Source: Candidatus Colwellbacteria bacterium (GTDB taxonomy: Bacteria > Patescibacteriota > Minisyncoccia > UBA6257 > Colwellbacteraceae). Taken from it: DNA of 64,000 nucleotides. Shown in pieces: positions 4,683-63,685 of this stretch (within the stretch, counting starts at the first letter, position 1; every line of letters begins with the position of its first letter). The stretch lies in NCBI GenBank assembly GCA_016176525.1, contig JACOWZ010000003.1, positions 128,001-192,000 of the forward strand, written 5' to 3'. The notes under the pieces were generated by a model, which worked only from the letters and a program-made list of their open reading frames with translations, searched no databases and had not been told where the DNA came from. The position numbers and the translations under genes were made by a program.

Positions 4683-6746
4683 CTAAACGTCTGTCTGCCG
4701 CCGTATTTTTTTGATAATATCTTTAGTAATTTGGTCTCTAGCTTTAGTTCGCTCTTCTGTGATTTTTTGCGCTGCCTTTTTACGCTCTGCTTTAAATATC
4801 TTTTCTTTCTCGGCTCTAAGTTTCGCTTGATCGCGCACTTCATCTTCAGCAAGTATTGCCCGCGTTTTTGTGCGTTCTACACGAAGAGCCGCAGACGCCT
4901 TTGCGCGTTCTTTTGCAACCGCAGATGCAACACGGATTTTCGCCGCATGCACTGCCTCATGCGCCCTCTCGCGTACACTCCTTAAAAGTTTTTCTGTTTT
5001 TCGTGCGCGTGCGAGTGCAGCCTTTGCTCTTTCTTTCTCTGCTTTAATTTCGCCTTCGGCCTTGCTCTTTACAGCTTTTAGGCGCGCTTCTTCTAACTTC
5101 TTGTGAGCAGCTATACGCTTTGCTTTTTGATTCTTTAGGCGGGTTAATTCCAGTTTAACTTTTGCGAGCTCTTTTAAGATATCTCTTTCTTTCTTTTTCT
5201 CTTCCATTAAAGCGAATTTGGTTGCTTTATTTACTCCGCTTAGTTTGATTTTTTTCTTTAGCGCAGCAATTTTTGTCTTGGCTCTCTCTTTTTGGCTTGC
5301 AATCAACTTTGACTCTTTCTCTAGCGTTTTAATCGCCTCCCTCGCGCGCTCGCGCGCATCTCTAATCGCGGCTTTTGCTTTATGCCTTGCCTCTGCAATA
5401 CTTTTTTGCTTTTCTTTGGTTTTTTCCGCGAGAAGTTTTTTAACCCTTTCATGCTCTTTTGCAAGCGCAAGTTCCGCCTCTTCTTTCTCTTTCTCTGCCT
5501 GCTCGGCAGCTTTTTTAGCTTCAATAAGCGAAGAGTCGCGCAGGTCGCGCTCAACATGCGTAGATTCGGCAAGTTTTTCTTCTGCAGAAAGCGCTGCCGC
5601 TTCCGCTTTTCTCTTCTCTTCAAATATTGCCTCTTCTGCATCTTTCTTTAGTTTTGCAAGCGTCTCTTCTGCGCGCCTTCTTTCGTCTGCGAGCGCGGTT
5701 TCTGCGCGTTCGCGTTCAATTGCAAGCTTTTCTTCAGCTACCTTTTTCTCAACAAGCGCCGCCTCTGCCATTTGCTTTGCACGCTCTGCCTCCTCTGCTT
5801 TCTTTTTAGCCTCCACTAGGGCCTTGCGAGCTTTTTCTATCTCTGCAGCCGCGGCTTTGGATTTTTTCTTCTCGCGTAAAAGCGCTTCTTGAAGTTTAAC
5901 CTTTTCCCCAAGCACTTCTTCGGTCGAAGTTGCCTTTACCGCTTTCTCCTCTGCGCGCTTTTTCTCAATGGCAATAGAAGCAGTAGTTCTTTTTCTCTCT
6001 TCAACAAGCGCCGCTTCAGCCCGTCTGCGCTCTTCTTTAAGGGCTTCTTCTGCGCGCTTATGCTCTTTTTCAAGCGCTTCTTCTTTGCGCTTAGCTTCTT
6101 CTTCTATTTTTTTGTGTTCTACTTCTCTCTCTGCTTCTGCTCTCTCGCGCTCTTTTGCTGAAGCCTCGGCCGCCCTTGCCCTCTCGGCTTCATGTGCTGC
6201 TTCTCTCTTTCTTCTCTCTTCTGCAAGCGCCTTTGCTGCATGCTTTCGCTCTGCATCAAGTGCTTCGCGAGCTTGGGCCTTTTCTTTTTCGTGCGCAGCT
6301 TCTTCCTCTTTATGGCGTTTTACCTCTAGCGCAGTTTTCGCATCTTCAATATCGGCAGTAGTTGGCAGCTGCACCCCGGCGCGCTCCATTATTTCACTAG
6401 CTTTCTCTACAACTTCTTTCAACGGATGGCTAGCTTTAACAAAATAATCCACAGCGCCCAACCGCAAGGCGCGTTTAATATCTTCATCGTTGCCGAGGTT
6501 TGAGAGCATTATTACATCGGCTTTCTTAAGCTCGTTGTCTCTTTTTAGTTCTTGTAAAACTTCAAAACCGTCTTTTATCGGCAACAGAATATCCAGCAAT
6601 ATAACATCTGGCAAAAAACGCCTTGCAATATCTACAGCCTCGCCGCCATTTTGCGCAATTTCAGCCTCAAAACCACTTGTTATAAATTTATCGCGTAAAG
6701 CTTCGGCGAGCGCAACCTCATCTTCTACAATAAGAACTTTCGCCAT
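4683..6746 (-). CDS. Response-regulator receiver domain fused to a ~550-aa highly charged E/K/R/A-rich helical (coiled-coil or single alpha-helix) region
   Basis: N-terminal 125 aa is a CheY-like receiver (VEDE...LLDILLP). The rest is low-complexity AEEKR repeats. Long + strand S/A/F-rich ORFs are mirror-image artifacts. Confidence 0.75.
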   Translation of the reverse strand: MAKVLIVEDEVALAEALRDKFITSGFEAEIAQNGGEAVDIARRFLPDVILLDILLPIKDGFEVLQELKRDNELKKADVIMLSNLGNDEDIKRALRLGAVDYFVKASHPLKEVVEKASEIMERAGVQLPTTADIEDAKTALEVKRHKEEEAAHEKEKAQAREALDAERKHAAKALAEERRKREAAHEAERARAAEASAKERERAEAEREVEHKKIEEEAKRKEEALEKEHKRAEEALKEERRRAEAALVEERKRTTASIAIEKKRAEEKAVKATSTEEVLGEKVKLQEALLREKKKSKAAAAEIEKARKALVEAKKKAEEAERAKQMAEAALVEKKVAEEKLAIERERAETALADERRRAEETLAKLKKDAEEAIFEEKRKAEAAALSAEEKLAESTHVERDLRDSSLIEAKKAAEQAEKEKEEAELALAKEHERVKKLLAEKTKEKQKSIAEARHKAKAAIRDARERAREAIKTLEKESKLIASQKERAKTKIAALKKKIKLSGVNKATKFALMEEKKKERDILKELAKVKLELTRLKNQKAKRIAAHKKLEEARLKAVKSKAEGEIKAEKERAKAALARARKTEKLLRSVRERAHEAVHAAKIRVASAVAKERAKASAALRVERTKTRAILAEDEVRDQAKLRAEKEKIFKAERKKAAQKITEERTKARDQITKDIIKKIRRQTDV

Positions 6747-53896: not shown

Positions 53897-53970
53897 TGGG
53901 TGCCTAACGGGAGTCGAACCCGTATCAAAAGCTCCACAAGCTTCTGTGTTGCCGCTACACCATAGGCACC
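53897..53970 (-). tRNA. tRNA-His (anticodon GUG) with G-1
   Basis: Hand fold: loop TTGTGGA, extra 5' G pairing C73. Confidence 0.6.
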
Positions 53971-54042
53971 ATAAAAACCCTAAAAACTATACCTACCTTT
54001 CCGGATTTTGCCAAGTAAACAGGTTTATAGTAGGATGACTAT

Positions 54043-54423
54043 ATGAGAGAAAAAATTAAGTTCCCCACAGAGGGCGAAAACAAAAAAGAGGAAGAGATTA
54101 AGATAAATCCAAAAAATCCAGAAGACAAAAAGCTTATGGAAAACGCTGATAAGCTTATTAAGGAAGCTGAAGCCGAGCAAGAGGTTCTAAATGAAATATT
54201 AGAGTTAGATCCAAAAACACGAGTTGATGATGCCGAGAGCCTTGTTACAGAAAGGTGGGCTAAGGGTTTGTATAAACAACTAGGCGGTAATGTAAAAGAT
54301 TTTAGCTGGGAGAATTTTAAGAAGACTTGGAAAAAAGTTAAAAAAGAAGCTCCGGAAAGACGAAAAGTATTGGCAGATCTGCGAAAAAACGTAGACGAAA
54401 CCAGCTGGAAATCTTATACATAA
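54043..54423 (+). CDS. Hypothetical charged protein (126 aa)
   Basis: ORF followed by a strong terminator. Confidence 0.45.
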   Translation: MREKIKFPTEGENKKEEEIKINPKNPEDKKLMENADKLIKEAEAEQEVLNEILELDPKTRVDDAESLVTERWAKGLYKQLGGNVKDFSWENFKKTWKKVKKEAPERRKVLADLRKNVDETSWKSYT

Positions 54424-54430
54424 GCACAAT

Positions 54431-54460
54431 AAAAAAATCCCCGGAGGGGGATTTTTTTAT
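54431..54460. terminator. Bidirectional intrinsic terminator (AAAAAAATCCCC gga GGGGGATTTTTTT)
   Basis: Seen in sequence. Serves the + strand ORF and minus-strand tRNA-Phe. Confidence 0.7.
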
Positions 54461-54462
54461 TG

Positions 54463-54534
54463 TGCCGCGGGGGTGAATCGAACACCCGACGCCAGCCTCT
54501 TCAGGGCTGCGCTCTACCACTGAGCTACCACGGC
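54463..54534 (-). tRNA. tRNA-Phe (anticodon GAA)
   Basis: Hand fold: GCCGTGGTAGCTCAGTGGTAGAGC..., loop CTGAAGA. Confidence 0.7.
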
Positions 54535-54611
54535 ATTTAAAGAATATAAACATCTTAAACTTTAAGTTTTAAAATTGCAATTAGAAAAAACACAATGTAT
54601 TCTCTCTGTAA

Positions 54612-54686
54612 GCCCCTGTCGTTCAATGGATAGGACGGAGGTTTCCTAAACCTCAAATCCAAGTTCGATTCTTGGTGGGGGCACCA
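54612..54686 (+). tRNA. tRNA-Arg (anticodon CCU), CCA encoded
   Basis: Hand fold: loop TTCCTAA. Arms near-identical to tRNA-Arg at 15192. Confidence 0.7.
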
Positions 54687-54691
54687 GAATT

Positions 54692-55639
54692 TTACCTAAG
54701 CGCTCCTTCAATTTGAAGTTCCCGCTTTGATAGGTAGAAGAAAAGCCCCACAACCAGAAATGTTATTAGCGGCGCCGTTAAGGATGATATATGTATTCCC
54801 AAGCTTTCACCTGTCATTATAAGCCCCAGAAATCCCACAGAATACATCGCTCCATTCTTAAGATAACGGTATTTCTTCACGGTTTTAATGCCATGGATGG
54901 TGAACCACCTTACAACAAAAGCGCCTAGCCCGTTTCCGAGAAGTATTAGCGGCACCGATATAGTAAATGCGAAAGCGCCAAGCACACCGTCAATTGAAAA
55001 AGTTGTGTCAATAACTTCCAAATACATAATTTTGCTTACGTCAGAAAAGTGGGCGTGCTTAAGCTCTCTTTCTTTCTGCTCTGCATTCTCTTTAAAGCCA
55101 GTGGTTATGAAAAACGCGGTTGAGCCGATAACTGCACCTAGCGCGATGAGTGGATTTATATAAATTGTTGTCCACACAACTGTAAGAAGTATTATTGATG
55201 CAAGAGCATAGAACCAAAACGAGTAATTCTTGTGTATGTGTTTTTCTAAAAAAAATGCATACTCTTTTGTTTGTAAGAAAAGCCAGTGTAGAAACAAAAA
55301 TATAAGATATATTCCCCCTCCGGCCAAAAGTATGGGCTTAGACCGCTCGATACTCTCCATTACTGCCGGGTCGGAACTGAACATTGCGGTAAATGCGCCC
55401 CAAATCCCCAAAGATGGGTTCGCTGCATAAACTATGGCAAGAGGCAAAAGGCCGCGAACAACTACAACCGCTATTATTATTCCATATAAAAGAAACCAGC
55501 GCCTCGCACGCTCCGACATAGTGGACAGTACATCTGCGTTGATTACCGCGTTGTCAACGCTTGAAATTGTTTCAAAGAGAACAAGCCCGACAACAATCAA
55601 TATAATCTCTAAAATGTCCATTGTAGGAGTATTAAACAA
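54692..55639 (-). CDS. TerC/DUF475-like integral membrane protein (two internal repeats)
   Basis: Repeats ETISSVDNAVI and EVIDTTFSIDGVLGAFA. Many TM helices. Confidence 0.5.
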   Translation of the reverse strand: MFNTPTMDILEIILIVVGLVLFETISSVDNAVINADVLSTMSERARRWFLLYGIIIAVVVVRGLLPLAIVYAANPSLGIWGAFTAMFSSDPAVMESIERSKPILLAGGGIYLIFLFLHWLFLQTKEYAFFLEKHIHKNYSFWFYALASIILLTVVWTTIYINPLIALGAVIGSTAFFITTGFKENAEQKERELKHAHFSDVSKIMYLEVIDTTFSIDGVLGAFAFTISVPLILLGNGLGAFVVRWFTIHGIKTVKKYRYLKNGAMYSVGFLGLIMTGESLGIHISSLTAPLITFLVVGLFFYLSKRELQIEGALR

Positions 55640-55685
55640 TAATTATACAAAATAGAAAATTTGTTTTAAACTTCTAAAAGTTTAT

Positions 55686-55757
55686 GCTCCTGTAGTTCAA
55701 TGGACAGAACAGAAGGTTTCTAACCTTTTAATGGGGGTTCGATTCCCTCCGGGAGCA
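55686..55757 (+). tRNA. tRNA-Arg (anticodon UCU)
   Basis: Hand fold: D-stem GTTC/GAAC, loop TTTCTAA. Confidence 0.65.
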
Positions 55758-55764
55758 CAAGCTA

Positions 55765-55835
55765 CGGGCTGTCGTATAATGGCAGTATACGTGTTTTGGG
55801 AACACGCGGCCTGGGTTCGATTCCCAGCAGCCCGA
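55765..55835 (+). tRNA. tRNA-Pro (anticodon UGG)
   Basis: Hand fold: loop TTTGGGA. Arms near-identical to tRNA-Pro at 13167. Confidence 0.6.
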
Positions 55836-55888
55836 CAAAAATAAAATATCTCGAGCGAGCAGTGAGAAGCGCAGCGTCCCAGCAGACC

Positions 55889-55915
55889 GACCAAAAGCGA
55901 AACCCCCTATTCGGG
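55889..55915. terminator. Bidirectional terminator GCGAAACCCCC tatt CGGGGGTTTCGC
   Basis: 11-bp perfect stem followed by an A/T-rich run. Confidence 0.65.
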
Positions 55916-55933
55916 GGTTTCGCATATAAATTT

Positions 55934-56332
55934 TTACATCTGACCTCCTTGTCGCGAAGGTGGGGTCTGCATTGGCATAGCTCCACTTTTTCTGCCTGCA
56001 AAACCTGCCCACAAAAGGACAACTGCTACAACAAGCTGCAACCAACTTGAGGCCGCGTTTGTAGCGACTAGCCCCAAAATTTTACCGTCTTGCGCAAAGA
56101 ATCCTAAAACTGCCAAAATCACGTAAATTACGCCCAAGGCCTTAAGGTACATCGCACCGGACGCGCCGCCTTTAGCAGCCCACAAAACCACGATGCCTGT
56201 GGCAAGAAGCAGTATTCCATGTGTGGCGTCTGCCGCGAAAAATGCTCCTTCTCCAACTATCGGGTTGCCTATAAAACTAAGAAGCCCCAAAAGCGCAAGT
56301 ATAGCGCCTGTTGCCATTACTACATTCTTCAT
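55934..56332 (-). CDS. Hypothetical small membrane protein (4 TM)
   Basis: Hydrophobic helices. Confidence 0.45.
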   Translation of the reverse strand: MKNVVMATGAILALLGLLSFIGNPIVGEGAFFAADATHGILLLATGIVVLWAAKGGASGAMYLKALGVIYVILAVLGFFAQDGKILGLVATNAASSWLQLVVAVVLLWAGFAGRKSGAMPMQTPPSRQGGQM

Positions 56333-56416
56333 GATGATTGAATTGTTAAAAGAAGTAATAAATCGACCTTTACATTGTAAATTATAACAAATTAGGTAAA
56401 ATCAAAACTATTGCTA

Positions 56417-56487
56417 CCCCCCATAGCTTAGTGGTAAAGCTACGGACTCTTAATCCGCAGATCAAGGTTCGATTCCTTGTGGGGGGA
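56417..56487 (+). tRNA. tRNA-Lys (anticodon CUU) with unusual C1:G72 acceptor end
   Basis: Hand fold: GACTCTTAATC anticodon arm, T-loop TTCGATT, acceptor CCCCCCA/TGGGGGG. Confidence 0.55.
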
Positions 56488-56489
56488 CA

Positions 56490-56835: not shown

Positions 56836-58983
56836 ATGCTTGTAAAGCTGGAGACTCCATTAGGCGAAATTCGCGGTATTGGGCCACATTTTTTGCCTCG
56901 CCTGAAAAAGCTAGGGATTTTAACAGCGCGTGACCTTTTGTACCATTTTCCTTCCCGCTACGAAGACTGGAGTGAAATTGTTAATATTGCGGAATTAAAA
57001 TCAGAGACAGCCTCCTCCGCTAAAGCTACGGGCGGCCAAAGTAAAACAATACGCGCAAGGGTTATAAAAATTGAATCCCGCAGAGCTTGGACAAGGCGAA
57101 AAATGCTAATTATTGAAGGCCTTCTCGCAGACGACTCTGGCGAAATACAAGCAGTTTGGTTTAACCAGCCATATATAAAAAATATATTAAAACCCGGTAC
57201 ACTTGCGAACTTTGCGGGAAAAATCTCGGCGCGCAACAGCAAATTAATTCTCTCAAATCCGACTTATGAATTGGTTGGCAAAACAGAGGCAAAACACACC
57301 GGCCGGCTTGTGCCAATTTATCCAGAAACTAAAGGACTAACATCCAAAGGATTAAGATTTGTTATAAAAGGCGTGTTGGATCACCTAGAAGAAATAGGCG
57401 ACTTTATCCCACCAGAAATTCTTAAATCGGAGAAGATTCCAGAGATAAATAAAGCTCTGCAAAACATACATTTCCCAAAAACTTCTAAAAGCGCGGGAGA
57501 TGCAAAAAACAGGTTCGCATTTGAAGAGCTCTTTTTATTGCAGCTGCGCAACTTACGCGAAAAACTTGCTATTCGCCGCGAGCGCGCACATAAGATAGCA
57601 CACACAAACGATGAAATTAAAGATATATTAAAGGGACTGCCGTTTGAGCTTACAATATCGCAAAAGAAAGCTCTTGTAGAAATATTAAAAGATTTAGACC
57701 AAAACCACCCAATGAACCGCCTGCTCCAAGGCGACGTGGGTTCCGGCAAAACAGTTGTGGCGGGTATTGCTGCGCTTATTGCCGGCAAAGTTGGGCAGGT
57801 TGCAATTATGGCCCCAACCGAAATTTTAGCCCGCCAGCACTACAAAACACTTGTCAAACTCTTTGGTGACGCACACACAAATATCGCACTCTTAATTGGA
57901 AAAGAAGCACGCATACATTACGGCAAAGAACTAGAGACAGCATCAACAAAATCAGATTTAATAAAAAAAATTGCCTCCGGCGAGATAAAAATAGTCGTTG
58001 GCACGCATGCTTTAATACAAAAGAATGTAAAGTTCAAGAATCTCGGCTTAGTTGTTATTGACGAACAGCATAGATTTGGAGTTAGCCAAAGAGCACAGCT
58101 TACCCATTCGACAAGCTCAGGGCAAACTATGCCGCATTTTTTAAGTATGTCTGCAACACCAATACCTAGAACACTAATGCTCTCTATATTCGGCGATTTA
58201 GACTTATCAATAATAGATGAGCTCCCAAAAGGAAGAAAGACAATTTTAACTAAAGTCGTATCCCCTCATAACCGCGACAAAGCATACGCTTTTATACGCG
58301 GACAAGTGCGCCGCGGCAGGCAGGTATTTGTGGTATGCCCACGAATAACAATAAATAATCAAGAACAAGTAACCAAGAATAAATTAGAATTACAGGACAT
58401 AAAAAATGTTGAAGAAGAATATAAAAAGCTGTCTAAAAATGTATTCCCAGACCTAATGGTTCAAATGCTGCACGGTAAGTTAAAAAGTGAAGAAAAGAAA
58501 AAAGTAATGTCTGATTTTACAGATGGCAAAATTGACATACTTGTAACAACTTCTGTTATTGAAGTTGGCGTTGATGTGCCCAATGCCACAATTATGATGA
58601 TAGAAGGGGCAGAAAGGTTCGGACTCGCACAACTTTACCAATTTCGTGGGCGCGTTGGCCGAGGCGAGCACCAATCTTTTTGTTTTTTGTTTACAGAGGC
58701 GGAGTCTAAAACTGCAGAAAAACGCCTTGAGGCAATTGCAAAGGCGAAAAATGGATTTGAATTAGCAGAAGTTGACTTAAAAATACGCGGGCCGGGAGAA
58801 TTTTTGGGCCAATCTCAAACCGGAATACCGGATATCGCCATGGAATCCTTAAAAAATCCGGAGTTACTTGGGCGCGTCCGCACTACAGCGCTAGAAATAA
58901 TTGCGAAAGACCCAGACCTTAAAACACACACCGCCTTATTAGAAAAACTGCGAGAATTCAAACAAAGAGTGCACTTAGAATAA
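56836..58983 (+). CDS. recG: ATP-dependent DNA helicase RecG
   Basis: Wedge domain, GDVGSGKT, DEQH, QLRGRVGRG motifs. Confidence 0.9.
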   Translation: MLVKLETPLGEIRGIGPHFLPRLKKLGILTARDLLYHFPSRYEDWSEIVNIAELKSETASSAKATGGQSKTIRARVIKIESRRAWTRRKMLIIEGLLADDSGEIQAVWFNQPYIKNILKPGTLANFAGKISARNSKLILSNPTYELVGKTEAKHTGRLVPIYPETKGLTSKGLRFVIKGVLDHLEEIGDFIPPEILKSEKIPEINKALQNIHFPKTSKSAGDAKNRFAFEELFLLQLRNLREKLAIRRERAHKIAHTNDEIKDILKGLPFELTISQKKALVEILKDLDQNHPMNRLLQGDVGSGKTVVAGIAALIAGKVGQVAIMAPTEILARQHYKTLVKLFGDAHTNIALLIGKEARIHYGKELETASTKSDLIKKIASGEIKIVVGTHALIQKNVKFKNLGLVVIDEQHRFGVSQRAQLTHSTSSGQTMPHFLSMSATPIPRTLMLSIFGDLDLSIIDELPKGRKTILTKVVSPHNRDKAYAFIRGQVRRGRQVFVVCPRITINNQEQVTKNKLELQDIKNVEEEYKKLSKNVFPDLMVQMLHGKLKSEEKKKVMSDFTDGKIDILVTTSVIEVGVDVPNATIMMIEGAERFGLAQLYQFRGRVGRGEHQSFCFLFTEAESKTAEKRLEAIAKAKNGFELAEVDLKIRGPGEFLGQSQTGIPDIAMESLKNPELLGRVRTTALEIIAKDPDLKTHTALLEKLREFKQRVHLE

Positions 58984-58984
58984 G

Positions 58985-60532
58985 CTAACGTTCTTCACTC
59001 TGGTAATCTTGGTACTGTTGATCCTGGTATTGTTGGTCTTGATATTGCTGATCATATTCCTCTTGATGCTGTTCATCGTAATACTGCTGAGACTGCTCCT
59101 CGTATTGCCTTTGATATTCTTCGCGCTTCGGGAAAACACACTGGCCTTCCTGCCAATATCCCCCTTGTTCAGCGCAGACTCTGGCAGCTTCGTCCTCGCG
59201 CCCTCCGCGCTCTTCACTATTGCCATAACCTCCACAGTCTTGTGGGTTTGCCTCACAATAAGCACGACATTCTTCCTGAGTACTACACCCGCCAGGCCCA
59301 GAAGATTCAAAACCTCCACCCTCTCGCTGAGCTCCGCTTTCATTTGAGCCAGGGCCAAAACCACGGCATTCTTCTGGGTTTTCCTTACAATAAGCCATAC
59401 ATTCCTCTTCGGTTTGGCAACCTCCAGGTCCAGAAAAACCGCCCTCGTGATCTCCAAACCCCTCTGGACCGGGCTGGAAACTTTGGAAACACGCCTCCAT
59501 TTTTTCACCCAATTGCGGAGTTGGGAAACCCTCGCCATTCAACAGCCGGTTAAACTCCGCCTCACCTATACTTTGTTTCAAGCACTCTATAACTTCGGGC
59601 GGAGCTTGCTCCAAACCGCGAGAAAATTCTTGTAAGCCCTCTTTCATACGAGCCTTATCTTCGTCGGATATAAAGCCAGCTTCTTCTGCAAAACGGAAAC
59701 ACTCTTCTACATTATTCTCGTCGTTGCAATACGCCTCGCACTGCTCTTTAGTTCTACAGCCACCCGGCATCTTGCCTTCTTTCATAAAAGTAAGCATCTT
59801 GCGAGCTTGCGATGCCTCCTCCTCATTCATAAGTCCCATCTTTAAACCAAACTCCATACATTCCTCTATGTTTTCGCCCTCAAAACAATACGCTTCACAT
59901 TCTCTTTGCGTACGACATCCACCAGGGGTTTCGCCGTTTCTCATAAGCTCCATAGCGCGCTTTGCGGTTTCCAGTTCGCCCTTATCCATAAAGCCGGCTT
60001 CTTCGGCAAAGGCCAAACATTCTTCCATATTGTCCGGGTTCATGCAGTATTCTTCGCAAGCTTCTTTGTTTGTGCAGCCTGCTGGAATTTGCACACCGCG
60101 CTTGATAGCCGACCGGATTTTTTTAGCTTCGTCTAAATCTTCATTGTCAATAAACCCGTGACGTTCTGCAAACTCTATGCACTCATCTAAGTTTTGGACA
60201 TTATTGCAGTAAGCCTCACAAGAAACATGACTTGTGCAACCTCCAGGACCACCCTCTTTCATCGCACTAGCAAACTTATCTAGGTCTTCTTCTTTTTGCT
60301 CTGCAATAGGCCCTTCAACTAAATTGTGCTTTTTAGCAAAAGCAAAACATGCGCGGAAATTATCCGGATTGTCGCAATACGAGCGGCACTCCTCCTCGCT
60401 TGTGCAACCACCAAGTTCTTCAACTGGGAATACAATATCATCTTTGGAGGCGGCATCTGCAATAGACACGAGAGATGCAACAAAGAGCGGTAAAAAAGCT
60501 AGCGCTAAAACAAGTGTAATGCGTTTATTCAT
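58985..60532 (-). CDS. Secreted Cys-rich repeat protein: signal peptide, seven ~40-aa 4-Cys repeats (GGC.S.EEC.AYC..P.N.EEC..FA...GF), Q/Y-rich acidic tail
   Basis: Repeats read directly from the translation. Opposite-strand ORFs are artifacts of the repeats. Confidence 0.65.
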   Translation of the reverse strand: MNKRITLVLALAFLPLFVASLVSIADAASKDDIVFPVEELGGCTSEEECRSYCDNPDNFRACFAFAKKHNLVEGPIAEQKEEDLDKFASAMKEGGPGGCTSHVSCEAYCNNVQNLDECIEFAERHGFIDNEDLDEAKKIRSAIKRGVQIPAGCTNKEACEEYCMNPDNMEECLAFAEEAGFMDKGELETAKRAMELMRNGETPGGCRTQRECEAYCFEGENIEECMEFGLKMGLMNEEEASQARKMLTFMKEGKMPGGCRTKEQCEAYCNDENNVEECFRFAEEAGFISDEDKARMKEGLQEFSRGLEQAPPEVIECLKQSIGEAEFNRLLNGEGFPTPQLGEKMEACFQSFQPGPEGFGDHEGGFSGPGGCQTEEECMAYCKENPEECRGFGPGSNESGAQREGGGFESSGPGGCSTQEECRAYCEANPQDCGGYGNSEERGGREDEAARVCAEQGGYWQEGQCVFPKREEYQRQYEEQSQQYYDEQHQEEYDQQYQDQQYQDQQYQDYQSEER

Positions 60533-60755
60533 TAAAAGGATTTTGATATGTTTGGGTAAAGGGATTAGTTTCTCTAAGCGGGTTGGTATCTGGCAAATCG
60601 GAAGCTGGGTTTTGTTCTATAGGGGCAAGGATAGACGGGGTTGTTAAATCTTCCAGCGTTGCAGGCGCGCTTTGTTTTTTGAAGAAAAATAAATAATAAA
60701 TGGCCGCAGCTACAAGCACCAATATGGCAATTAGAACAATAGTGTTCTTCTGCAT
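60525..60755 (-). CDS. Small single-pass membrane protein (76 aa) overlapping the start of the Cys-rich protein gene
   Basis: TM IVLIAILVLVAAAIYYLFFF. 8-nt overlap suggests coupling. Confidence 0.4.
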   Translation of the reverse strand: MQKNTIVLIAILVLVAAAIYYLFFFKKQSAPATLEDLTTPSILAPIEQNPASDLPDTNPLRETNPFTQTYQNPFNE

Positions 60756-60813
60756 GTTATAGAAATTATATCATAATTGATTTTTATTACAGAGTGGATA
60801 TTATTATATGTAC

Positions 60814-60885
60814 GCGGGTATCGTATAGTGGCTATTATACCTCGTTGCCAACGAGGAGATGGCGGTTCGATTCCGCTTACCCGCT
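60814..60885 (+). tRNA. tRNA-Gly (anticodon GCC)
   Basis: Hand fold: anticodon stem CCTCG/CGAGG, loop TTGCCAA. Confidence 0.7.
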
Positions 60886-61971
60886 CTGTTTGTTTTTGAG
60901 TTTTTCTAACTCTTCTTTTAGCTTTATCATCTTTAGTTCTCTTCCTATCATTAGTTTGTTCATTGTTTCTAACTCATTGATTTTTTCTTGTAGTTCCTGT
61001 GTTCGCTCTTTTACTTGTTTTTCTAATTGTATTTTTAAAGAAGCCAATATCTCTTTTTTTTCTCTTTCAGTCTGCTCCGCTTCTTTTAAAACTGCTTTTT
61101 CTCTTTCGCGCCGTTTAACCTCTTCGGTGCGATCGTTTACAAAAAATGCAATTCCAATTTGCCTGTTATGGCCGTTTTGCACCGGCGAGAGTGCAGTAGA
61201 AATTATTAAATCTTCTCCTTTACGGTTTTTGGTTTTAACCTCCAAAGCGGTAGTTGATTTGTTTTTTATGGCTTCTTTAAAAAGACCGAGTAATTTATCT
61301 TTAAACTCGCCAACCGCTTTATCAAAAATTAATTTTCCAGAAACATCAACTTCGCTCAAGCCAAAAAGTTTTTGCGCACTCACGTTCCACTGAGTAATTC
61401 TTCCATCCAAATCTGTGATAAATATAGCCTCTCCGGCGTTGTCTAAAACATTTTTAAAATAACGCGATGAGAGCAAAAGACGGCGATATTCGGGTACGTC
61501 AAGCGGCGGGTCTGTACGTATTTGTTCGCGCACCGCGCCGATTGTAGTGCGCATTCTTCTTTTCTGTTTTATGCCTTGAATAAGCTCTAAAACTCGGTTT
61601 TTAAAATCGAAAATGGAATTTATATCTATAACAAGCCAAGAATCGCCTACTCGCGCGGCATATTTAAAATCTCGCTCCATATCTTCTTTTCTTTTTTTAT
61701 TTTCTGTTAAAAATATATAAACCATATCTGGTTCAAGCGAATAAAAATAACGTGCCAATTCAAGTGAAGCAGCCAAATCTTGCTCAAAAATAACTATGAG
61801 GGGGTGCCTCCGCTCATCAAAAAGTTGCTTAAATATTTCTTTAGCTTTATCCCTCTTTGCTATTACACAATCTAAGCTTTCTACAAATAAATCTTTAAAA
61901 AGAATGCGTTCTTTATCCGAAATTTTTCCGGATTCGTTTACATATAAATAACAATCACTTTTAGTCTGCAT
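60877..61971 (-). CDS. Signalling protein: degenerate receiver-like N-domain, PAS domain, ERT-containing coiled coil, C-terminal MNKLMIGRELKMIKLKEEL motif
   Basis: PAS core (AIFITDLDGRITQWN). S-helix-like KERTQEL. No enzymatic output. Confidence 0.6.
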   Translation of the reverse strand: MQTKSDCYLYVNESGKISDKERILFKDLFVESLDCVIAKRDKAKEIFKQLFDERRHPLIVIFEQDLAASLELARYFYSLEPDMVYIFLTENKKRKEDMERDFKYAARVGDSWLVIDINSIFDFKNRVLELIQGIKQKRRMRTTIGAVREQIRTDPPLDVPEYRRLLLSSRYFKNVLDNAGEAIFITDLDGRITQWNVSAQKLFGLSEVDVSGKLIFDKAVGEFKDKLLGLFKEAIKNKSTTALEVKTKNRKGEDLIISTALSPVQNGHNRQIGIAFFVNDRTEEVKRREREKAVLKEAEQTEREKKEILASLKIQLEKQVKERTQELQEKINELETMNKLMIGRELKMIKLKEELEKLKNKQSG

Positions 61972-61977
61972 AATTTA

Positions 61978-63150
61978 TTACAATAACGGTAAACCCAAAA
62001 GATATCTTCCAAGCCATTCTTTTAAAATCTGTGTTGTGGGGGCCATAACATGACTCGCACGCACGTCCCTTAATAATCGCGAGAGATATGAATTCTGGGC
62101 ATAAGCCCTGCCGCCGGCAAGCGACATTGCTTCGTTTACAACATACACTGCCATATCGGCAACATCTGCCTTACAGCCAAGGATAGAAGAAAGCGCGCCG
62201 GGGTCTGCGACATCTCCTCTTTGTCCTGCATCATAAATAAGGCCGCGAGTTTTCTCTACCTGAATCCAAAGATCTGCTAAAGAAATCTGGAGCGCCTGCA
62301 CATTTGAAAGCGAAGTGCCAGAGTGGCTATAGCGGCGAGCTTTAAGATGTTCTTTTACATAATCCAGCGCACCTTGAGCGGCGCCCAAATAACTGCCGGA
62401 CATAGAGAGTAAAAAATAAGGCGCGACTACTTCAAAGACATACCATGTTTGGTCACCTTCTTCGCCTAAAAGATTTTCAACAGGAATTTCTGTATTTTTT
62501 AGCATCATACCGCGCGATGAGTTGCCGCGCATACCAAAACCGTTCCATGCCGGCCCCCATTCAATACCACGCGCACGCTTATCTAAAATAAGCATATTGA
62601 ATTTGCCTTCTCCAGCTTCGCCCTGCAATTCTTCGCTAATATGTGTAGATACAACGTACGAATCGGCGTACCCGCCGTTGGTAATAAAATCTTTCTCCCC
62701 ATTCGCCAAAAATTTTTTGCCGGATTTTGTAAGTTTAGTTTCTGGAAAATAAAAGTGCGCTCCGGAACCGGACTCGGACAAAGCAAGCGTGGTAATATGC
62801 TTGCCTTCGGCTATTGGTTTTAAATAATTCTCCTCTTGGTACGGAGTTGCCTTTGCCGCGATAACTGCAGTACCTACGCAATGCATACCAAAGCAAAGCG
62901 CACAAGAAGGGTCAACCTTACCAATTTCTTCGGAAATTACAGCCAAGGCCTGCAAGCCTTGTTCGTGCCCGCCAAAACGTTTGGGCACATTTAAGCCTAA
63001 GAGGCCTGCATCGCCTAAAGCACGCATGCCCTCTTCGGGCCACCGCGCTTCGCGGTCGTTGCGCTCGGAGTGCGGCCGAATATATTTTTCGCTAACTTCT
63101 CGTGCAACGTCGCGCAAATCTAATATTGTTTTAGATAAAAAGCCCTCCAT
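61978..63150 (-). CDS. Acyl-CoA dehydrogenase family protein. Start moved to MEGFLS; the track's N-terminal extension to 63381 looks spurious.
   Basis: ACAD N-terminal, middle and C-terminal pattern. GC noticeably above window average. Confidence 0.65.
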   Translation of the reverse strand: MEGFLSKTILDLRDVAREVSEKYIRPHSERNDREARWPEEGMRALGDAGLLGLNVPKRFGGHEQGLQALAVISEEIGKVDPSCALCFGMHCVGTAVIAAKATPYQEENYLKPIAEGKHITTLALSESGSGAHFYFPETKLTKSGKKFLANGEKDFITNGGYADSYVVSTHISEELQGEAGEGKFNMLILDKRARGIEWGPAWNGFGMRGNSSRGMMLKNTEIPVENLLGEEGDQTWYVFEVVAPYFLLSMSGSYLGAAQGALDYVKEHLKARRYSHSGTSLSNVQALQISLADLWIQVEKTRGLIYDAGQRGDVADPGALSSILGCKADVADMAVYVVNEAMSLAGGRAYAQNSYLSRLLRDVRASHVMAPTTQILKEWLGRYLLGLPLL

Positions 63151-63220
63151 ATTACAACTATAAGTATACAATATCAGCACAAAAAGAAGCTCCGACCCAA
63201 ATCGGAGCTTATGCGCTTTA

Positions 63221-63685
63221 TTAGTGCCTGTGCGCAATGGGTAGAGGGGGGAGCGTTGCCGCAACGTCGGCATGGCGGTGCTCGAGTTGCGCAAAGCTCC
63301 TTTTGAGTTCTTCGCTCTGCGGATGTTCGCGGCGCGAAGCAGTGTTCTCCTGCATCGCGGCAGTGTAGAACGAGACTTCACGTTCTTTCGGCCCCATCAA
63401 CTCATCGGGGCCGTGGTGATGGTCTCGAACCTGCTCAACCAAGAGCTTTGCCAAGAGTTCGCCAGGATCAAGCTCCAAGCTCATCTCTCCGTACCGGAGT
63501 GCAGCGTGGTCTGTCTTCTCGCCACCGGTGACGTACACGTGCCAACCCTTAAGGGCGAAGAGCGTAGATCGGGTGCTAACGATGATATCTGGCGGCAACC
63601 CTAACGCTTCCTCCAGCTCTTCTCTGGCTTCGTGGAACCGGCCGTTTTCCATCAGCATACGTACCTTCTCTGCATACGTTGGCAT
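63221..63685 (-). CDS. Hypothetical protein (~155 aa), GC-rich; start taken at MPTYAEK behind a GAGGAGG Shine-Dalgarno
   Basis: ORF plus SD. No motif. Confidence 0.4.
   Translation of the reverse strand: MPTYAEKVRMLMENGRFHEAREELEEALGLPPDIIVSTRSTLFALKGWHVYVTGGEKTDHAALRYGEMSLELDPGELLAKLLVEQVRDHHHGPDELMGPKEREVSFYTAAMQENTASRREHPQSEELKRSFAQLEHRHADVAATLPPLPIAHRH

Follow-up and report, generated by a model that had tools for sequence, protein, structure and literature searches.

The two genes described here lie side by side on the minus strand of a 64-kb stretch of the genome of a Candidatus Colwellbacteria bacterium (contig JACOWZ010000003.1), a stretch referred to below, at its full length, as the window. 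Gene 1 encodes a small single-pass membrane protein whose C-terminus bears NPF motifs, and gene 2 (58985..60532, minus strand, 515 amino acids (aa), the same sequence as NCBI's 'hypothetical protein HYS87_01130 [Candidatus Colwellbacteria bacterium]', which comes from a metagenome-assembled genome with a 645-kb contig) encodes a presumably exported protein made of seven four-cysteine units. We found that gene 1 is a conserved and obligatory partner of the repeat gene and that the four-cysteine repeat and its NPF partner represent, as far as searches of libraries and literature show, an undescribed family of a familiar kind. We propose that the two proteins would build a two-component, membrane-tethered extracellular scaffold, stapled by disulfides and provided with variable C-terminal modules, and we consider the chances that this reading is right to be evenly balanced. 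The anatomy, the partnership and an extracellular location close to the membrane are held with high confidence; a direct binding of the NPF tail to the array and the final role of the pair (adhesion, wall organisation or other) are suggested with low confidence.

Conservation of the gene pair

Loci of other genomes were collected among species-representative genomes with a back-translated DNA pattern for one unit; counts of small open reading frames (ORFs) refer to 105 evaluable loci and the clustering of neighbours to 123 loci. With a strict three-motif regular expression, 89 of the 105 loci were seen to have a gene 1-type ORF immediately ahead of the repeat gene and in the same orientation, and inspection revealed a divergent small ORF in the remaining 16, which brings the total to 105/105. 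Applied to 0.99 Mb in six frames, this expression matched 100 times, about 90 of the matches being located at the position upstream of the repeat gene. A preliminary description of the locus, made from its letters alone, had reported a 76-aa ORF with a single transmembrane (TM) segment overlapping the start of gene 2 by 8 nt and had linked this tiny membrane protein to the repeat protein; the overlap was confirmed, and the partnership holds at every evaluable locus and goes as far as gene fusion in one clade. The two ORFs overlap or lie at most 30 nt apart in 79 of 86 distinct pairs, and translational coupling between them is probable from this arrangement.

In six unrelated genomes, an ORF of 77-94 aa stands immediately upstream and the wider surroundings all differ (DnaK/DnaJ, PolA, YidC, PGI, MerR and others). 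No third recurrent gene was found among the clustered neighbours, the next best being a P-type ATPase and RecG with 8 loci each. Moreover, the subtypes of the small protein track those of the large one: tails ending in NPLDRANP[FY]KYxNPLR are paired, in 8 cases out of 8, with arrays that have an extra N-terminal region of ~130 aa. Downstream genes in three loci (L001, L003 and L007) often encode other extracellular proteins of types characteristic of Parcubacteria (Gmad2+Kazal, DUF5671, DUF5667+Kazal and a 1130-aa fn3/LamG protein), none of which recurs enough to count as part of the module.

The small membrane protein

The databases contain 288 relatives of the small protein, all of 77-122 aa, all without Pfam assignment and named 'hypothetical' or given incidental automatic names. 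They are built alike: the N-terminus is short and basic, a single TM helix bears an aromatic belt, and a linker that varies leads to a C-terminal array of 3-5 NPx motifs (NPxx..P(E/D)xNP[FL]..xNPF..Y(K/Q)NPF). NPF followed by 0-3 residues forms the C-terminus in 119 of 120 database relatives of gene 1; the window protein bears its NPF motifs in the tail peptide TNPLRETNPFTQTYQNPFNE, and residues N49, P50, P55, N58, P59, N64, P65, F66, Y70, N72 and P73 are invariant in alignment A4. In the family, the net charge of the flanks is +2.5 on the N-terminal side and +0.67 on the C-terminal side, with N exceeding C in 154 of 198 members. This bias points to an N-in/C-out topology, which would place the NPF tail outside the cell, on the same side as the secreted array. 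A sortase B-type NPxTx signal was considered and rejected, as NPF lies 0-3 residues from the C-terminus and the TM segment is N-terminal, with none downstream.

Natural fusions

In one clade, both genes are combined in a single reading frame. Locus L100 (1549-2598, UBA2135) encodes a protein of 348 aa in which the TM anchor is followed by ETNPFEFYKNPF, then by ~25 aa of linker and by five Cys units, without a signal peptide between anchor and array and without Ns in the sequence. The identical protein (P0380) is found on seven contigs from independent sources, and six further fusions (P0383, P0388, P0390, P0396, P0398 and P0399) of 347-366 aa have the same architecture at 50-54% identity to it; one of these six comes from a Sungiibacteriota metagenome-assembled genome, on a 923-kb contig. 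Independent contigs and diverged members together indicate a stable fused clade and not an assembly error. The fused proteins have no C-terminal tail region, and the gene 1 anchor stands in for the signal peptide. Fusion implies that the two products act together and that tail and array share one side of the membrane, and it indicates that a membrane-tethered array is a native state.

There is practically no chance that the repeat is a random or low-complexity artefact, or the small ORF spurious. All that could be invoked for such an explanation is that the 76-aa ORF is small and that annotation is missing; the explanation is already refuted by the unit scores given below, by thousands of homologs, by synteny, with a small ORF conserved at the amino-acid level in all 105 loci, and by the in-frame fusion.

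Domain architecture of the repeat protein

The window was searched in all six frames for the Cys pattern (C-x5-C-x3-C-x(4-10)-C). Seven matches fall in the gene 2 ORF, and the seven copies score i-E (independent E-value) 1e-21 to 5e-6 with a profile from homologous units, in agreement with the seven four-Cys repeats that had first been noticed after a signal peptide. The sole match elsewhere, at 4891-4947 on the minus strand (CGENPCCICGCKRTRKGVC), is a short Cys-rich stretch not related to the repeat family. The five long units have their first Cys at residues 43, 99, 153, 206 and 259; they recur every 53-56 aa, so that the unit length of ~40 aa initially given has to be revised. The spacing C-x5-C-x3-C-x8-C reported at the same time is right for units 1-5 and fails for the last two, truncated half-units (first Cys 372 and 416) with C-x5-C-x3-C-x6-C, which are separated by Gly-rich linkers. 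Short units are also present in many homologs. Features of the pair are gathered in Table 1.

Table 1. Features of the gene pair, with positions in the window
Feature	Position	Strand	Basis and remarks
Gene 1, 76-aa single-pass membrane protein, NCBI HYS87_01135	60525..60755	-	ORF; family alignments A4, A5
Gene 1 TM anchor, aa 5-25, TIVLIAILVLVAAAIYYLFFF	60681..60743	-	hydrophobic segment read from sequence
Gene 1 NPx array, aa 49-74, NPAS..P.TNPLR.TNPFT..YQNPF, two residues before C-terminus	60534..60611	-	
Possible extended -10, TGaTATAAT, 9 nt before gene 1 ATG	60765..60773	-	sequence reading
8-nt overlap ATGAATAA, gene 1 stop inside gene 2 start	60525..60532	-	
Signal peptide, aa 1-27, predicted cleavage between ADA and AS	60452..60532	-	sequence reading; low pLDDT (predicted local distance difference test) for residues 1-27
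Unit 1, aa 38-84, candidate N-terminal cap variant	60281..60421	-	i-E 2.3e-18; (V/I)xELGxC replaces GPGGC
Unit 2, aa 94-143, long three-helix 4-Cys	60104..60253	-	i-E 1.1e-21; modelled helices 102-109, 112-125, 130-144
Unit 3, aa 148-197	59942..60091	-	i-E 1.1e-21; single-unit AlphaFold2 model pLDDT 88, three helices
Unit 4, aa 201-251	59780..59932	-	i-E 5.5e-20
Unit 5, aa 254-302	59627..59773	-	i-E 1.2e-20
Non-repeat helical middle domain, aa 303-358, APPEV..C motif, Cys pair 317/348	59459..59626	-	
Unit 6, aa 367-393, short half-unit	59354..59434	-	i-E 1.4e-6, profile positions 2-30 only
Unit 7, aa 411-433, short half-unit	59234..59302	-	i-E 4.7e-6
Cys-closed beta hairpin, C453-x11-C465, CAEQGGYWQEGQC	59138..59176	-	model strands 459-461, 464-466
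Q/Y-rich acidic tail, aa 468-515	58988..59131	-	one long modelled helix 468-514, Tyr every 4-5 residues

The N-terminus of gene 2 (MNKRITLVLALAFLPLFVASLVSIADA followed by AS) is laid out like a Sec signal peptide, with a basic part, a hydrophobic part and an AxA site, a call made by eye, and 181 of 259 homologs have an N-terminal hydrophobic segment. The mature protein is strongly acidic (isoelectric point about 4.3, 17% Glu). In nearly every member of the family, the first unit reads DIxYPVxELG(N/G)C...FAEKHNL instead of GPGGC...FAEEAGF, and P36, E39, L40 and G41 of unit 1 are nearly invariant in alignment A1. Unit 1 may be a specialised N-terminal cap and possibly the meeting point with the NPF tail. 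In the middle domain, P311 and C317 are nearly invariant in the same alignment, and the AlphaFold2 model shows helices 312-322, 324-331 and 339-352 at pLDDT 90-97. Four additional Cys form two isolated pairs (317/348 and 453/465).

The Q/Y-rich tail of the preliminary description was found again at the C-terminus. It contains a DNA-level tandem repeat (59006-59053, period 15) and is the sole DNA-repetitive part of gene 2, which indicates that the protein repeats are ancient. What follows the last unit in homologs measures 163 aa at the median and has a high content of Pro, Gly, Glu and Gln; in 29 of 259 homologs, [FY]QQQ-type periodic stretches resemble the tail of the window protein. Some homologs carry LamG or Kazal domains on the repeat chain, LamG being N-terminal to the array in L086 and L106; no LPXTG motif, sortase signal or C-terminal TM segment was found in the repeat family. 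One homolog (P0395) is named 'YppG family protein' by NCBI, presumably from its Q/aromatic-rich tail; the window protein has no YppG match in Pfam.

Extent of the repeat family

A word-indexed homolog search with the gene 2 protein (cut-off E<=1e-3) returned at least 1433 homologs, nearly all 'hypothetical' and without Pfam domains. Searched against 1.84 billion cluster representatives at 50% identity, a single-unit profile matched 1,899, of which 1,655 below 1e-10; nearly all belong to Patescibacteria/Parcubacteria, and most have 6-13 units. The family appears compact, with few distant relatives around it. The consensus of 729 units is GPGGC-[RK][GS]KEE-C-[ED]A[YF]-C-xDPx[NH]xEE-C-xxFAEExG[LF][MI]xxEExxxA[KR]K, the period among homologs is 48-54 aa, and all four Cys are present in 1951 of the 1953 units detected by the profile. 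The window protein has all the features by which the family is defined: at least four tandem GPGGC-x5-C-x2-[YF]C-x8-C-x2-FA units, a signal peptide and an upstream small ORF with a TM segment and an NPF terminus.

At least 119 DNA stretches of species-representative genomes match the one-unit pattern, almost all from Patescibacteria/Parcubacteria. The lineages represented among these stretches are Harrison-, Lloyd-, Nealson-, Jorgensen-, Sung-, Azam-, Yanofsky-, Nomura-, Uhr-, Terry-, Wolfe-, Wildermuth-, Ryan-, Kaiser- and Niyogibacteria as well as Paceibacterota. Matches were also seen in some third-party annotation (TPA) bins labelled 'Saccharibacteria' and in a few with archaeal or gammaproteobacterial labels, these labels being unverified. 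Five matching records have archaeal labels, DPANN or other (L114, L032, L063, L089 and L090). L114 is the 875-kb chromosome of a 'Candidatus Aenigmatarchaeota' (CP066684.1) and contains a multi-unit array, with C-x4-C unit variants and a GYQSPE-repeat tail, together with an NPF small ORF. Multi-unit arrays are also encoded in L032, in L063 and, near the edge of the locus, in L090; none was found in L089 despite its match to the repeat pattern. The archaeal-labelled arrays come either from mislabelled bins or from transfer between bacteria of the candidate phyla radiation (CPR) and DPANN archaea.

Neither protein has a significant match in Pfam, NCBIfam, PHROGs or PADLOC; in the last two, no family was obtained at E<=0.01 for either, so that they are not assigned to anti-phage defence or phage families. 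PDB sequences, queried with the full-length protein and with a profile of 112 units, gave only noise and designed helical repeats (dTor, E about 1e-3, from summed insignificant pieces). With Foldseek, the best E-values were 0.66 (whole model against PDB), 3.3 (one unit against PDB) and 0.42 (whole model against BFVD), the best matches being generic helical repeats or bundles. Literature searches found no specific earlier description of the repeat or of the NPF partner. The statement that the repeat is not a known domain thus stands across these family libraries, PDB sequences and PDB/BFVD folds.

Several sub-threshold candidates were rejected. Nif11 (PF07862) scores 15.3 bits against a gathering threshold of 23.8 and covers only 14 residues, a helix-turn of the FAEEAGF type. 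AtDEF-like PF25052, a CS-alpha/beta defensin-like family flagged on some homologs, scores 12.6 bits against a cut-off of 25, and the units are all-alpha in the models. Other such matches (SpoIIIAH etc.) reflect composition or Cys pattern only. Among PDB sequences, the scorpion toxin BmKK4 aligns to the unit profile at E=4.6 only.

Fold of the unit

The whole gene 2 protein was modelled with AlphaFold2 from an alignment of 80 sequences, and a single unit from an alignment of 112 units. The predicted whole protein is all-alpha in the units, with a mean pLDDT of 83 and values >90 over the repeats; the single unit is modelled as three helices with pLDDT 88. In the models, each long unit is composed of three helices: C1 is located in the GPGG loop just ahead of helix A, C2 and C3 lie on helix A, one turn apart, and C4 is in the first turn of helix B, of which the conserved N/H at +15 is the N-cap. 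Helix C is longer and runs into the next unit.

Covariation was computed independently of AlphaFold2 by a mean-field method on 863 distinct units (effective number, Meff, 731); Cys-Cys scores were disregarded as artefacts of invariant columns. The top pairs (31-45, 31-41 and 35-45) correspond to contacts between helices B and C, pair 3-33 connects the N-terminal segment to the end of helix B, and pairs 19-47 and 23-48/50 connect the A-B loop to the end of helix C. AlphaFold and covariation therefore agree on an up-down-up three-helix bundle as the predicted fold of the unit.

Pairing of the cysteines

According to models and covariation, C1 adjoins C2 and C3 faces C4, the two pairs being at opposite ends of helix A, which argues against a single Cys4 metal site. 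Two nearest-neighbour disulfides per unit (C1-C2 and C3-C4) are favoured by this geometry over metal binding. Four further elements point the same way: (i) export by the Sec route, as the signal of gene 2 is Sec-type without Tat twin arginine, (ii) an even number of Cys in the mature part of 249 of 257 homologs, (iii) the Cys outside the units, which come in isolated pairs that can only be disulfides, and (iv) the fusions with Kazal domains. Correlated loss of Cys gave no disulfide pairing, which is impossible to obtain from invariant Cys. As to the alternative formulated at the outset, an extracellular module either disulfide-knotted or metal-binding, its extracellular nature is retained and disulfides are favoured; the predicted bundle is not a knot, and metal is disfavoured. 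The structure prediction suggested on the same occasion yielded all-alpha, three-helix units with a Cys geometry in favour of two disulfides. In CPR bacteria, an extracytoplasmic oxidoreductase of the MdbA/DsbA type is conserved and frequently neighbours VKOR (bioRxiv 10.1101/335083).

It appears very unlikely that the four-Cys units are metal sites (Zn, Fe or Fe-S) and the array an extracellular metal store, buffer or redox/electron-relay wire on which the small protein would dock. Such a function would suit the near-perfect invariance of the four Cys and anaerobic hosts, in which thiols could stay reduced, and four ligands per helical unit of 50 aa recall the Cys4 sites of helical proteins such as WhiB-like proteins. 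However, with a Sec and not a Tat signal, the cofactor would have to be loaded outside the cell, and C1/C2 and C3/C4, at the two ends of helix A, offer poor tetrahedral geometry. The conserved N/H at +15, which might also be counted for metal, is at the helix B N-cap. The units contain no CxxC knuckles, and the isolated Cys pairs, the even Cys counts and the disulfide-dependent Kazal domains on the same chains are likewise unfavourable to metal.

Proposed function and alternatives

We propose that the pair would be a self-contained, two-gene cell-envelope module of Parcubacteria. Gene 1 would provide a type-II (N-in/C-out) single-pass anchor with a short extracellular tail ending in 3-5 NPx/NPF motifs, and gene 2, translationally coupled, a Sec-exported acidic array of three-helix bundles. 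The four invariant Cys would lock each unit, C1-C2 at the start of helix A and C3-C4 by stapling the helix A/B hairpin. The gene 1 protein would hold the array at the outer face of the membrane, non-covalently in most lineages, presumably through the NPF tail, and covalently in one clade, through gene fusion. The array could then act as a rigid, oxidation-stabilised stalk or scaffold presenting lineage-specific C-terminal modules (LamG lectin-like domains, Kazal domains, Pro/Gln-rich tails and, here, a Q/Y helix) to the wall zone or to a partner cell.

Four observations weigh against this proposal. No thiol oxidoreductase (CPHC/CGPC) was found within the window, and the NPF tail and the array are both acidic. 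In the fused clade, where no tether by binding should be needed, the NPF motifs are still conserved; kept in spite of the covalent link, they may do more than tether, for instance by docking on the array as part of its structure, by capping unit 1 or by binding a third component. Finally, about half of the homologs end, after a Pro cluster, in a hydrophobic or amphipathic stretch of ~15 residues (e.g. ...PPPTSSALDTILAPFVNFLR): at least 10 hydrophobic residues are present in the last 20 of 141 of 259 homologs vs 3.7% of background windows. This segment could be an anchor of its own or a second contact, with the membrane or with a partner; the window protein, which stops at the Q/Y helix, is without it.

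The Cys-repeat protein might instead be an adhesin or effector, released or wall-bound, that acts on a host or partner cell, the NPF protein being a helper in its export, folding or maturation or a separate surface ligand sharing the operon; we regard this as unlikely, although Parcubacteria are presumed symbionts and the C-terminal modules vary and are of the kinds that usually go with adhesion or inhibition (LamG, Kazal, low-complexity tails). Indeed, the array is highly conserved and apparently single-copy, unlike fast-evolving adhesins, and the neighbours of the module are housekeeping genes. The NPF motifs kept in the fused clade suggest a role other than tethering, but the same fusion fixes the array to a TM anchor, so that tethering is at least tolerated and probably native. 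Large Cys-rich extracellular proteins of CPR bacteria have been proposed to act in attachment (PMC4736985).

The module could also be a spacer or ruler of the wall zone that organises peptidoglycan or an S-layer, its NPF, Q/Y and Pro-rich tails binding wall polymers and not each other, which seems to us quite unlikely. A rigid, disulfide-stapled array, present across Parcubacteria and adjoining housekeeping genes, would be appropriate for such a task, and the aromatic/Gln-rich tails and the helix with its Tyr stripe would suit carbohydrate contacts. Pro-rich segments recall the wall-spanning regions of Gram-positive surface proteins; however, no LysM, SLH, SPOR, SH3b or CWB wall-binding domain was detected in the Pfam scan, and neither an LPXTG motif nor a sortase signal is present.

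We give little credence to a bolder view, in which the pair would be a lineage-defining surface recognition system of Parcubacteria, with the array as a new class of receptor reading the NPF peptides of the anchor and the complex forming an attachment or stalk to hosts, or in which the 20-50 invariant Cys per chain would serve as an extracellular redox-active thiol/disulfide or metal relay. The motif-receptor version would be a bacterial, oxidised counterpart of motif recognition by solenoids or EH domains. A sortase signal, a pilin, an S-layer protein and a RiPP (ribosomally synthesised and post-translationally modified peptide) precursor were all rejected on anatomy.

Relation to known systems

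By analogy of working principle, the scaffold proposed here seems closest to the Cys-rich Sel1-like repeat proteins of Helicobacter, and next to peptide-binding solenoids. HcpA-E of Helicobacter consist of disulfide-bridged Sel1-like alpha/alpha repeats, and crystal structures exist for HcpB and HcpC. Both systems would be secreted bacterial tandem helical repeats with a disulfide in each unit, serving as interaction scaffolds and not as enzymes. However, an Hcp unit comprises two helices in about 36 aa and a single disulfide, whereas the units described here have three predicted helices, about 50 aa and four Cys, belong to another lineage and come with an obligatory small TM partner. No Sel1 or TPR family was obtained for the gene 2 protein at E<=10 (Pfam hmmscan), and the best Sel1-like Foldseek match (6ok3) has E=4.0 and a TM-score of 0.13, the units not being of the two-helix, 36-44 aa solenoid type.

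The TPR/EEVD, ARM/importin-alpha/NLS and eukaryotic EH/NPF systems share with our pair a helical repeat array and a partner with short repeated C-terminal motifs, here NPF. The present pair differs in being extracellular and disulfide-stabilised by prediction, and the resemblance may be taken as a lead only: NPF is present, but no EH/EF-hand, TPR or ARM signature was found in the gene 2 protein with Pfam.

Alpha-hairpinins of plants, kappa-hefutoxin CS-alpha/alpha peptides, twin CX3C small Tims and twin CX9C CHCH proteins resemble the predicted unit by a CX3C helix stapled to its neighbour and by two disulfides per small helical module. In these families, which are single domains, CX3C or CX9C occurs twice, symmetrically, on antiparallel helices, whereas our units have a single CX3C, with a further Cys in the loop before it and another on helix B, add a third helix and are repeated 5-13 times. 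Membership of the twin CX3C/CX9C or alpha-hairpinin families was rejected on the single CX3C per unit. Gram-positive surface proteins have a similar layout of signal peptide, repeat stalk, Pro-rich segments and variable adhesive modules (LamG etc.); they differ by the LPXTG/sortase signal or C-terminal TM, absent here, where anchoring would apparently be ensured by a separate or fused N-terminal type-II protein.

Significance

Parcubacteria are among the most abundant uncultured bacteria, and almost nothing is known in molecular terms about their cell surfaces, through which their presumed dependence on other cells must operate. The pair offers a new repeat domain, modelled with confidence and worth its own entry among protein families, a small and obligatory partner distinguished by the unusual NPF array at its C-terminus, and natural fusions that fix the topology and link both proteins functionally. 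It is an expressible two-protein target for work on structure and binding and a potential marker of surface architecture for cryo-electron tomography or metaproteomics of CPR bacteria. Even a purely structural function would provide an annotation for about 2,000 clusters of 'hypothetical protein'.

Genomic surroundings

The pair is flanked upstream by a tRNA-Gly gene (60814-60886, plus strand) and downstream by the convergent end of recG (56836-58983, plus strand), and is on this account its own transcription unit. The -10-like element of Table 1 would, as a suggestion, give a near-leaderless mRNA; for the minus strand, a consensus scan gave no complete -35/-10 pair. A promoter-like site on the plus strand (60777-60804), just upstream of the tRNA-Gly gene, is placed back to back with the start of the small ORF. 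This tRNA-Gly(GCC) gene overlaps by 10 nt the 3' end of a PAS-domain gene (60877-61971, minus strand). The window contains 14 tRNA genes, which is dense for a small genome, with a cluster at 53898-56488 (His, Phe, Arg, Arg, Pro, Lys). Finally, an acyl-CoA dehydrogenase with all three domains is encoded at 61978-63381 on the minus strand, which is unusual for a CPR organism with minimal metabolism; its stop-to-stop ORF has ~75 extra N-terminal residues, so that the true start is probably further downstream.

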